Shown here: piece after piece, positions 3,117 to 61,582 of the stretch
Numbering within the stretch: the stretch's first letter is position 1
How the letters are laid out: the number at the start of each line of letters is the position of its first letter
From: Phyllosticta citribraziliensis
Taxonomy: Eukaryota
Assembly (NCBI RefSeq): GCF_038025025.1
Contig: NW_027117345.1
Span: 1 to 64,000, forward strand
Reading direction: 5' to 3'
DNA length: 64,000 bases
Notes under the pieces: generated by a model
Databases searched by the model: none
The model's input: only the letters and a program-made list of their open reading frames with translations
Told to the model about the DNA's origin: nothing
Program-made: the position numbers and the translations under genes

Positions 3117-3457
3117 TTCGACTTCGCGTCAACCTGGGGCAATGTCCGGATAGCTGCTTCCGAAGAGGAAGTCACATGCGTGGCACCACAAGGAGGCTTC
3201 GTCTGCAGGCGGACATTCAGTTCTAACACTCGCTGTTGCACGCTTCCATGATGTCGGCTTGTTATGATCTGTCGAACCATCTAGAATTCTAGAATTTAGC
3301 CTTGTCATTCGTTTGCTAGACCGAAAAATACAACTGATTGCAAAAAGCTCTACTGTTGGCGAGTTTCGAACGTCTTTCAGTGCGTGCCCTGTTTGCTTTA
3401 TTCATTAGCCTGATTTGATGTATGTCGAGCGGACTGACCAGTTGCTCGAGTTCCCCT

Positions 3458-5628
3458 TTAACCGTAACGTGGTCTGGGAACATTCTCGTAGTAAGGAACG
3501 ACGATGATATTTTTGTCTTCACTCGCTCCGACCATCGATTTCGTGACAGGATGCGTCGGCTTTCGGCTGACGAGAAGTTCGATGCAAGATGGTCCATCTT
3601 GGCTGAGCACTTCCATGAGCGCAGGCTCAATCTCTCCGATTTGGTCAACTTTCGCAGAACTGTTCCCGAGTCCCCTTGCGATCATGGCATAGTCCGTCTT
3701 TGGGCTCAAGGACGAGACAGGTCGGGAGGCGATCTTTTCACCATACACAAGGTCCTGGCCGTTGGCGCTCATTCCCCAGCAGTGGTTATTTACGACTACA
3801 GTGAGCACATTCAGGCCGTGTCGAGCGTACGAATCCAGGTCCATGAAGTGGAATCCGGCAGAACCGTCTCCTTGGATGTTGACAATCATCTGGTGCGGCG
3901 CTGCGACTGCGCATCCCAAGGCCTGGCCGAATCCCGACCCGAGAAAACCAAGGTAGCCGGTGCTTGATACGATAGTGTGTGGTTTGGCTAGCTTTGCTGC
4001 CATCGCCGCCCAGGAAGCGCACTCTCCGCCGTCAAAGACGATGATCGGATCTGGTGGGAGCAACGACAACAGCGCGGCCAACGCGTGGTAAGGGTGCATT
4101 TTTCCGTCCTCTATTGTTCGTGGCTCTTTTTCAAAAGGCGTCGGTATGTCCTTCAATGCCGTGGCAAGTTTGATCCACTCAGGAGATACTTGGACCGGTA
4201 TTTTTGACAGTCCCACGTTGAGAGCCTGCAGTGTTTGACCCACGTTGGCAACGACTCCAACGTCGACTGCGCAGGTCCGACCGATTTCGCCTCCGTCTGT
4301 GTCGACTTGAATGATTTTGCAATCTTTTTCAGGAATGATGGACCCTCCACGACCTCCAAGATACATTCCGGTGCGGGCTCCGAGCAGTAGAAGGCAGTCC
4401 GGTGGCGCGGATCCCACTCGCTTCAGAAGTCCCAAAGCGTCTGCAGAACCAGCAAAGACTGGGCTTTCGTACAGCGGAAATAAGAAACAGAACTTGCCGT
4501 TGTGAAAAACTGGTATTTGCGTTGATTTGGAAAATTCCAGCAGTGCCTTGACAGCCTGTGATGAAATCAGCCTTCTGTCGCATTATACTGGAATCTTTCG
4601 AGACGCTTACAGAAGCAGACCTCGCGCCACTCCCGAATATGATTGCCGGTCTTTTCGCCTCTTTCAATAACAGTAGGGCCTCGTTGACGGCACTCATGCT
4701 CGGGCCCGGGGGGAACGGAAGAGGGCTCGTGATGGCACCCCAGGATATGCGCGATGCCTCGACGGGTGCGAACAACACATCGATCGGAAAGTCGACAAGA
4801 ACAGGACCTGCAGTGTGTCAGTCAGAGACGATTCGTGGCCATGAGGCTCGGTAGCACAATTCGTGGCGCAAAGTAATGCGGTTGTGCGAATGCTCCTCGT
4901 AGTCACAGCCCACAGGCGCTGGAAATCGTCTGAGCCTCTGGCCAAAGGAAGGCTCGAAGTTTGCCCGAACGCTCCACATTAGTTGAGATCCAAAGCGTAC
5001 AAACACTTCTAATCAACTATCGCCTTCTGATGTGCGCCACGACCTTTGCCACCGAGCATCGAGAGACGGATTCCGCAGACTGACCTGGAGCGCCAGCTGT
5101 CGAAACATGAATGGCGTGGGCCACAATCCGAGGAATATCCTCGGCATATATCACTCGGTGCGCGAATTTTGTCAGTGGTCTTGCGGCAACCACTTGGTCG
5201 ATTTGTCCTTGGAGGGAATTGTTTTCTTGATCTCTGAGTGGCACAGAGGACGTGATGCAAAATATGGAACTGCGGTCTGCCAACGCCGTCGCCAATCCGG
5301 GAAGACCGTTTGAGTACCTTTGCGCGCAAGGTCAGTCGCCATGCTCCACGCGATTGGGGTCGTATACTGACCCGCTGTTTGCAGTGACGAAGCAAACGCC
5401 TGTCTTCCCAGTCATCTTCGAGTATCCTTCGGCGGCCTGGACTGCGACAGTTTCATGCCGAGTATCCACCAGTCTGATGCCGACGTAGTCACATCCAACC
5501 AAAAAGGCATCCAAGTGACCGCCATGCAGGCCAAAGGCGACCTCCACTCCGATCTGACGAAGACATTGGGCCAAAAGGTCGCCTCCTGTCAGCTCTCGGT
5601 GAACAGGATACTTGAGCGAAAACGACAT
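3458..5628 (-). CDS. ThDP-dependent enzyme, benzaldehyde lyase / 2-hydroxyacyl-CoA lyase / acetolactate synthase-like; 4 exons (introns 5318-5371, 4808-5084, 4556-4610)
   Basis: N-terminal GGDLLAQCL..GVEVAFGLHGGHLD..DTRHE (catalytic Glu), GPVLVDFPIDVL, and the ThDP/Mg motif GDGSAGF...VVNN. The three GT-AG introns join all segments in frame. Confidence 0.92.
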
Positions 5629-60581: not shown

Positions 60582-61582
60582 GCCAACCACCTCACGCCAA
60601 CAACCCCCCTGCCGCTGCAGACGACGACCTATCATCCTGCCTGTCCACCACAACAGCAACGTCCCTCCACCCCGGCGTCGACCTCACCCGCAACCCCACC
60701 AAACCCAAAAACCTCGCCTTCCGCAACCCCTTCGCGCAGCCCCCGCCGCCGCAGTGCGGCATGCGCTACACGCGGCCCGTCCGGCGGGCGTACGCGTGGC
60801 CGCGGCTCGACCGCGGGTTCGACGGCGTTGGTCGCCCGCCGCTGGATCTGGGCAAGGCGTTGCCGCCGATTCCGCGGGGAGCGGATTCCGGTTGTGAGTC
60901 TGACGAGGATGGTGCTTTTGGTGCTGCTGTGGGTGCGCGTGCGAGAACGAGGCCGCAGAGCTCGCAGCAAAGAAGCAGTGCGAAGCAGAAAGACGACGGG
61001 AAACCGCATCCGCATCCCCGCCGCCTCTCCCTCTCGCTCTCGGCGCTGCCCGACACGCCGTTCCTCGGCGCGCTCGACGTGTCGAGGCTGGCGGTGGGCG
61101 AGGAGCGCGTTTTCAGGCTACCGCCGCCGCCGCCAGCATCGACGACTACAACAGCGACGGCAACGGAGGAGGCGGCGGTCACGGCGTCGGGGCTGTCGAG
61201 GTCGTTTGAGCCGGGTGCGGGTAGAGGGATGAAGATGCGGCGGCACGGGTCGGCGCCGCAGCCCACGACGGCGACGACAGCGACGACAGCGACGGTGAAG
61301 GAGATGCAGGTGGCTAGCAGCAGAGGGAGGTTCTCGTGCGATGACGCTGCTTCATCATCGCGTCGAGGTCAGTCTCAACCCCACCAGCGCAGTCGCAGTC
61401 GCCCACCACCATCAGAGCCAGAACGCCCACACAGCCGCACCGAGTCAACGAGCCGCAGCGAAGGACAGAGCGCCGTCGATCAAGAAGTAGACGGCATAGC
61501 GCGGCGGCTGGCTTTTGCGATCAAGAATGGGCGGGCGAAGGGGACGCGCGCGGTCAAGGTGAGTTGGGTTGTGGGGTACTGA
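58556..61582 (+). CDS. Large Ser/Pro/Thr/Arg-rich, intrinsically disordered hypothetical protein (about 1008 aa) with a poly-His tract
   Basis: A 3-kb uninterrupted ORF; (CAT)12 at 60545-60580; short ordered C-terminus ..IARRLAFAIKNG..VKVSWVVGY. Confidence 0.75.

Follow-up and report, generated by a model that had tools for sequence, protein, structure and literature searches.

In the yeast gene RPS17B, splicing is promoted when a stretch that follows the donor pairs with one that precedes the branch site (PMC2536676). Introner-like elements of Dothideomycetes are defined by many near-identical copies, each of which is a whole newly gained intron. They can insert only a few bases away from sites at which other fungi carry introns (Collemare 2015, PMC4457414). 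DNA-transposon-derived introners are short non-coding segments bounded by inverted repeats that lie in genes and are spliced out (Gozashti et al. 2022). Also, the internally symmetrical (stw)introns of the Hypoxylaceae carry terminal repeats of 45-55 nucleotides (nt), occur as many similar sister copies at new positions, and have a donor split by an inner intron (PMC8469720). Fungal thiamine pyrophosphate (TPP) riboswitches are found in structured introns of thiamine-connected genes. Here, we describe the second intron (intron 2, minus strand, 4808-5084) of a gene encoding a thiamine diphosphate (ThDP)-dependent enzyme in Phyllosticta citribraziliensis. The gene lies in the first 64,000 nt (64 kb) of contig NW_027117345.1 (assembly GCF_038025025.1), the whole stretch analyzed in this study and hereafter called the window. 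Intron 2 is 277 nt long and contains one long inverted repeat that pairs as an RNA stem. On balance, our results lean toward an old short intron that was enlarged in Phyllosticta by an insert of about 218 nt bounded by inverted repeats, with the RNA stem as a by-product.

The intron structure was compared with contigs of several sequencing runs. X1 and X2 come from the same organism and were produced in two studies, X6 comes from a relative, and X4 is a DNA run; X1, X2, and X6 were taken as RNA on the sole basis of their GT..AG-spliced contigs. Contigs of X1, X2, and X6 join exactly across 4808-5084, skipping 277 nt with GT..AG ends (CT..AC on the plus strand), and the junctions of all three coding introns are used in X6 as well as in X1 and X2. 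Intron 2, which interrupts the codon of Gly164 in phase 1, is a real and correctly spliced 277-nt intron that is removed in most transcripts. An earlier note on this DNA, made from the letters alone, had contrasted its length with the 54 nt (5371-5318) and 55 nt (4610-4556) of its neighbors, and both the gene model and the spliced contigs agree with these lengths. The exon structure assumed there was also borne out, with no differing structure in the spliced contigs of the three RNA runs.

The position of intron 2 is shared with other fungi, and its length is not. Metagenome contigs were scanned with an alignment (A1) of 24 family proteins, giving 77 loci. In a motif-distance test, both motifs flanking the intron 2 site were found in 31 of these loci and the other 46 gave no motif pair; 24 of the 31 are intronless at the site and seven have an intron. 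Two loci without a motif pair (L066 and L073) were settled by inspection, bringing the intron-bearing loci to nine, with seven distinct sequences. In all nine, the intron lies at the same codon and in the same phase 1, in the Gly before an invariant Pro-Val (G164, P165, and V166 are invariant in A1), and its length is 50 nt (L060, L061, L069, and L070), 53 nt (L058), 54 nt (L001), 56 nt (L066), 58 nt (L031), or 62 nt (L073). If 218 nt (4843-5060) are removed from intron 2, the 59 nt that remain still include a donor, a branch site, and an acceptor, and fall within the 50-62 nt of the orthologues.

The long form is confined to the Phyllosticta lineage, where two DNA contigs of X4 carry it. In the first (an 885-nt piece), intron 2 has 277 nt, with 22 differences and no gaps; in the second (an 892-nt piece), it has about 284 nt, with 147 differences and 19 gap letters. 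The comparison of intron 2 with the relatives' contigs rests on the positions of insertions and deletions (indels), and all nine indels that the diverged X4 copy has in intron 2 fall at 4885-4956, in the interior of the intron and outside the repeat arms described below. The intron position is therefore old, a short intron is usual there, and the excess length arose once. Judged from these sequence comparisons, the gain in length predates the split of these Phyllosticta lineages and is younger than their divergence from the other sampled fungi. Additionally, the whole gene is present in X4 in two versions, with about 97.5% and about 83% identity to the window, and this sample seems to contain two Phyllosticta-like genomes.

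The donor of intron 2 is GUCAGU (5079-5084) and its 3' splice site is CAG (4808-4810), as read from the sequence and, for the latter, from the spliced contigs. The region CUGACUGAC (4817-4825), with two overlapping CUGAC motifs, is what we take to be the branch region on the basis of the fungal CURAC consensus, and the candidate branch A would be at 4818 or 4822. Between these signals lie the two arms of an inverted repeat, one (the 5' arm, 5033-5060) located 24 nt after the donor and the other (the 3' arm, 4843-4870) about 25 nt before the branch A, with an interior of 162 nt (4871-5032). The helix of 25 positions that had been proposed earlier (5057-5033 with 4870-4846) was recounted with the same result: 21 Watson-Crick pairs, two G-U pairs, and two mismatches, which are A/G and G/A (purine-purine). 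It extends to 28 positions (5060-5033 with 4870-4843) that are 82% complementary. In the partition function, the stem consists of halves of 11 and 10 base pairs with a probability near 1 around an internal loop; the pair probability is at least 0.93 at 22 of the 28 positions of the 5' arm, and the central A-U and G-U pairs reach 0.17-0.18. Complementarity, the shuffle test, and pair probabilities define the 3' arm in the same way.

Folding against shuffled controls, a check that had been suggested with the original observation, showed that two of 200 shuffles equal the minus-strand fold of the whole intron (-104.9 kcal/mol, z -2.79), and 14 of 200 equal the plus-strand fold (-93.6 kcal/mol, z -1.60). 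The best ungapped stem was reached by none of 2000 dinucleotide shuffles of intron 2 when G-U pairs were allowed, and by three of 2000 when only Watson-Crick pairs were counted. Across the 64-kb window, allowing G-U pairs on the minus strand, two places were found versus a mean of 0.2 in block shuffles. Thus, the stem is significant if the intron is picked for its length, and only borderline if it is picked for its stem. When G-U pairs are tolerated, the top-scoring inverted repeat in the window (score 23.5) lies near 61203, at about 61120-61300 on the minus strand; it was considered as a related stem and rejected, as it lies among GC-rich GTC/GCC-type repeats of coding-like low complexity.

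The other structural claims made for the intron did not hold to the same extent. A second helix (5009-4994 with 4973-4956) and a GAGCCU/AGGCUC hairpin (4955-4932), which had been placed inside the long stem, are both absent from the minimum-energy structure, and the 162-nt interior has no excess structure over shuffles (z -0.77; 43 of 200 fold equally well). The nested inner structure of intron 2 is not supported. Complementarity between the donor GUCAGU and the branch motif ACUGAC had also been pointed out; the same complementarity occurs in the 54-nt intron 1 and is given by the splice consensus, because the GUCAGU and CUGAC signals match each other by themselves. As for the wobble pairs that were thought to make the fold strand-specific, one (5050-4853) is predicted to form with a probability of 0.999, and the other (5044-4859) mostly does not form (0.17). 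The strand-specific case thus comes down to one pair, because the second G-U pair reaches only 0.17. Taken together, these results confirm the earlier observation in part: the intron and a single long stem hold up, and the nesting and the special pairings do not.

According to the explanation toward which we lean, an ordinary U2-type GT-AG intron would have occupied an old position in a gene for a benzaldehyde-lyase-like ThDP enzyme. In the Phyllosticta lineage, this intron would have gained about 218 nt (4843-5060) between imperfect 28-nt inverted repeats, the insert most probably being what remains of a small foldback element or of an element like a miniature inverted-repeat transposable element (MITE), or the product of another single insertion event. 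In the pre-mRNA, the arms would form a stable stem, with 11 and 10 base pairs on either side of an internal loop, as a by-product of the repeat in the DNA. The stem may then loop the insert out, bringing the donor and the branch site about as near to each other as in a short intron, so that the intron would be mostly spliced, and the minor unspliced fraction would encounter a stop after 27 intronic codons. Three readings had been offered at the outset (a novel splicing-regulatory RNA, an introner-like element, or a MITE tolerated within an intron), and an inverted-repeat element inside the intron fits best among them. Its strong point is that the 218 nt bounded by the repeat make up the whole excess length, and its weak point is the lack of a target-site duplication next to the arms. 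Inverted repeats that enclose the excess length in this way are typical of the build of small foldback or MITE-like elements. The G+C content of the insert (0.55) is the same as that of its surroundings and differs from that of the 17-18% G+C block at 300-1200.

Several results weigh against this explanation or against one of its steps. No target-site duplication abutting the arms was found; a flanking direct repeat matching at 11 of 12 positions (score 9) was considered as one and rejected, as 37 of 150 shuffles gave an equal repeat. No second copy of any part of intron 2 was present in the 64-kb window beyond chance matches of 12-16 nt, and none was detected among the 77 metagenome loci, where one 18-nt match had an E value of 3.2. 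In the window, two Watson-Crick repeats of equal score were found versus 1.4 on average over 15 block shuffles; because about 1.4 such repeats are expected per 64 kb by chance, the repeat could be a coincidence in an intron that grew otherwise. With regard to the helper role of the stem, the long stem alone shortens the structural path from the donor to the branch A from 266 to 50 nt, and this path is roughly 40 nt in the short neighbors. However, all 200 shuffled interiors gave a path of 50 nt or less (median 23), and path shortening is general for folded RNA of such size, because all shuffled interiors do likewise. The earlier remark that looping out leaves an intron of normal size is therefore correct in that 59-65 nt remain, and uninformative in that all 200 shuffled interiors shorten the path as well.

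A further point against it concerns the unspliced transcripts. A contig with unspliced intron 2 was present in both RNA runs, with a word depth of 143.6 unspliced versus 1377.1 spliced in X1 and of 11.2 versus 175.7 in X2, which puts the unspliced share at roughly 6-9%, a rough figure since contig depths are a poor measure. Intron 2 is removed less completely than its short neighbors, a point that a regulatory reading could claim as well. The three short introns have zero depth in X1 and X2, and by our own arithmetic the bin depths equal the expectation for exons only; because of these two results, DNA contamination is ruled out as the source of the unspliced contigs. The X1 contig covering intron 2 (4781-5111) crosses both exon junctions, and for this reason it represents unspliced pre-mRNA and not a processed piece. 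In the read-through frame, a stop codon lies at 5016-5014, 27 codons into the intron. P0028, a 472-amino-acid open reading frame on a contig of a relative, reads through about 48 nt at the 3' end of intron 2, and is too short and ambiguous to bear on the stem.

The most probable of the alternatives is that the repeat arose by chance in an ordinary long intron that grew by unremarkable insertions or duplications, having neither the history of an element nor a function. The number of comparable repeats in the window, the lack of a target-site duplication and of a further copy in the window, the unstructured interior, and the plus-strand fold, with its z of only -1.60, are all as expected for such a coincidence. 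Against it, the stem is rare inside intron 2 itself, in the Watson-Crick shuffles and even more so with G-U pairs, and the arms enclose the surplus sequence almost precisely, so that the 59-nt remainder matches the orthologous introns. We regard this alternative as unlikely, although it is the one to be taken most seriously.

A second alternative assigns the stem to selection, either as a zipper stem that a fungus with short introns would need for splicing a 277-nt intron, or as a switch that tunes the enzyme level through an unspliced transcript with a premature stop. Several results are in line with this: the pairing probability is near 1, the stem beats every shuffle when G-U pairs are allowed, and the minus strand folds better than the plus strand, each relative to its own shuffles. 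In addition, at least two further genomes retain the intron at this length, the nine indels of the diverged copy all miss the arms, and of the four introns, intron 2 alone has an unspliced contig in both RNA runs. A precedent exists in yeast, where pairing near the donor and near the branch site promotes splicing by a shorter branch-point distance (PMC2536676). Other results speak against selection. The arms occupy 56 of the 277 nt, so nine indels would miss them by chance in about 13% of cases by our own arithmetic, which leaves the indel argument weak, and the five mismatches among 28 positions are about what neutral decay since the split from the diverged relative would leave, as roughly judged from difference counts. 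Only one G-U pair is predicted to form, each of the 200 shuffled interiors brings the donor and the branch site as close, and no riboswitch-like match was found. ThDP-using enzymes are not known sites of fungal TPP riboswitches. This alternative appears less probable than simple coincidence. Its most far-reaching form, in which the stem would be a selected element conserved in the genus that controls the removal of the over-long intron, sets a condition-dependent fraction of unspliced transcript with premature termination, and so tunes the benzaldehyde-lyase-like ThDP enzyme, as a structure-based splicing control gained from a domesticated inverted-repeat insertion, seems improbable to us.

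The comparison with known RNA families bears on the same question. In a covariance-model scan of 4500-5400 on both strands with E values up to 10, as proposed in the earlier note, no Rfam family was matched; mir-978 (E 1.1) and HOTTIP_1 (E 6.6) were far below their gathering scores. The absence of a TPP-riboswitch core and of C/D boxes, already remarked upon, was confirmed: intron 2 contains no CUGAGA and no UGAUGA (C box), and CUGA is confined to the branch region. The view of intron 2 as a novel splicing-regulatory RNA, possibly linked to thiamine, is not supported, given the lack of an Rfam match and of CUGAGA, the unstructured interior, and the removal of the intron from most transcripts.

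As a third alternative, the whole intron might be an introner-like or other transposon-generated intron that was gained in parallel at a site that holds an intron in other fungi. Introner-like elements, as van der Burgt reportedly described in 2012, are longer and more stably folded than regular introns, and this is also true of intron 2, with 277 nt versus 54, 55, and 50 nt for the other introns of the gene and a z of -2.79. They are reported to insert within 15 bp of regular intron positions of other fungi (PMC4457414). In addition, the two exon-intron junctions of intron 2 have six bases in common (4805-4810 and 5082-5087), which could be read as an insertion duplication; this identity probably reflects the AG|GU consensus, which accounts for most of the six bases, though insertion-generated introns leave such repeats. 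However, the intron position is not a new one: site and phase are identical, and not merely near, in the nine loci with introns of 50-62 nt. The repeat begins 24 nt inside the intron and not at its ends, the 59-nt remainder is a complete normal intron by itself, and no copy is present in the 64-kb window. The old position common to nine loci and the lack of a second copy in the window thus disfavor the introner-like element that had been considered at the outset, and we rate a parallel gain as very unlikely.

Least credible of all is that intron 2 hosts a processed non-coding RNA, such as a small nucleolar RNA (snoRNA) or a small RNA derived from a hairpin: fungal snoRNAs are often intronic and make for unusually long host introns, and the long stem would be a possible substrate for a double-strand-specific nuclease, but the only Rfam hits at E values up to 10 were the two noise hits, UGAUGA is absent and CUGA limited to the branch region, and the X1 contig spanning both exon junctions is unspliced pre-mRNA.

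The gene that carries intron 2 extends over 5628-3458 on the minus strand and encodes a ThDP enzyme of 594 amino acids in four coding exons according to the gene model. Exon 1 (5372-5628) starts with an ATG at 5628-5626, matches TPP_enzyme_N (E 3.7e-20), and is covered by spliced RNA contigs. It is followed by intron 1 (5318-5371, 54 nt, GT..AG), at which a joint skipping 54 nt occurs in X1, X2, and X6, and by exon 2 (5085-5317), which is supported by the gene model, a Pfam match, and spliced RNA contigs. Beyond intron 2, exon 3 (4611-4807) agrees between the gene model and spliced contigs, intron 3 (4556-4610, 55 nt) is marked by a joint skipping 55 nt in spliced contigs, and the coding part of exon 4 (3458-4555), ending with the stop codon at 3460-3458, matches TPP_enzyme_M and TPP_enzyme_C. 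Together, the pieces of the gene match the Pfam families TPP_enzyme_N, TPP_enzyme_M, and TPP_enzyme_C. The product of exon 4 is 100% identical to P0026, an annotated 594-amino-acid Phyllosticta protein, and 89% identical to the protein of a second Phyllosticta species. Among solved structures, benzaldehyde lyases come closest (E about 5e-88). Far more of the metagenome orthologues share intron 1 (residue 86/87) than share intron 2. In some loci, e.g., L031, intron 2 is present and intron 1 is not, and the family shows a patchwork of intron loss.

A further intron of 50 nt with GT..AG ends lies in the 3' untranslated region (3'-UTR) at 3389-3438 on the minus strand, where a joint skipping 50 nt was found in X1 and X2. 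It begins 20 nt past the stop codon, and at such closeness it is not expected to act as a decay trigger. The contigs of the relatives differ at this site: in X6, a loose end lies at 3438, and in X4, 91 nt are skipped. On the plus strand, an open frame at 2170-2979 is convergent with the ThDP-enzyme gene and matches Pfam Cutinase (E 4.2e-39). Near the edge of the contig, a block at 300-1200 has 17-18% G+C, against a window average of 55%, and contains several AT-rich inverted repeats. This block looks like a repeat degraded in the manner of repeat-induced point mutation.

The value of intron 2 is modest. It offers a clean and datable case in which a fungus with a compact genome tolerates the five-fold enlargement of an old intron, with the insert neatly bracketed by inverted repeats and with transcripts that show the enlarged intron still being removed, less fully than its short neighbors. 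It might therefore serve as a natural test case for how intron-definition spliceosomes cope with long introns. It also shows that three seemingly striking features, namely donor/branch complementarity, wobble pairs, and a normal size after looping out, are to be expected from the splice consensus and from RNA folding in general. If the stem were under selection, the intron would become a genuine, if small, case in which a domesticated insertion controls splicing.

When placed beside the described systems, intron 2 resembles the fungal TPP riboswitch introns in being a structured intron of a thiamine-connected gene. It differs from them by having neither a covariance-model match at E values up to 10 nor CUGAGA. 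The gene uses the thiamine cofactor and neither makes nor imports it. With the introner-like elements of Dothideomycetes, it shares the fungal class, a length beyond the usual 50-55 nt, and a predicted stable fold, and it differs from their newly gained, multi-copy introns by its old and shared position, its internal repeat, and the lack of a copy in 64 kb. Compared with the MITE-type or DNA-transposon-derived introners, the insert is likewise a short non-coding segment between inverted repeats that is spliced out of a gene. However, it has no target-site duplication, and it sits in an existing intron and did not create one. As terminal repeats of a MITE or foldback element, arms of 28 nt with 82% complementarity were matched in three of 2000 shuffles within the intron, yet window-wide the count was 2 versus 1.4. 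The (stw)introns of Hypoxylaceae (PMC8469720) likewise have inverted repeats, a possible double-stranded intron RNA, and no short flanking duplication. In contrast to these, the repeat of intron 2 is 28 nt long and internal, its donor is a single plain GUCAGU, and its position is old.

The yeast zipper stem introns (RPS17B/RP51B type) are similar in the placement of the paired segments, one of which follows the donor and the other precedes the branch site (PMC2536676). The shortening of the structural donor-branch path of intron 2 from 266 to 50 nt is a further likeness, though a non-discriminating one, as each of the 200 shuffles behaves likewise. The host is a filamentous fungus with short introns and not a budding yeast, an effect on splicing, known for yeast, would apply here only by analogy, and the arms of intron 2 look like an inverted repeat at the DNA level that bounds an insert. 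Taken together, intron 2 lacks the tested defining features of a TPP riboswitch, a C/D snoRNA host, an introner-like element (a new position), and a (stw)intron, whereas it shows the descriptive features of a zipper stem intron.

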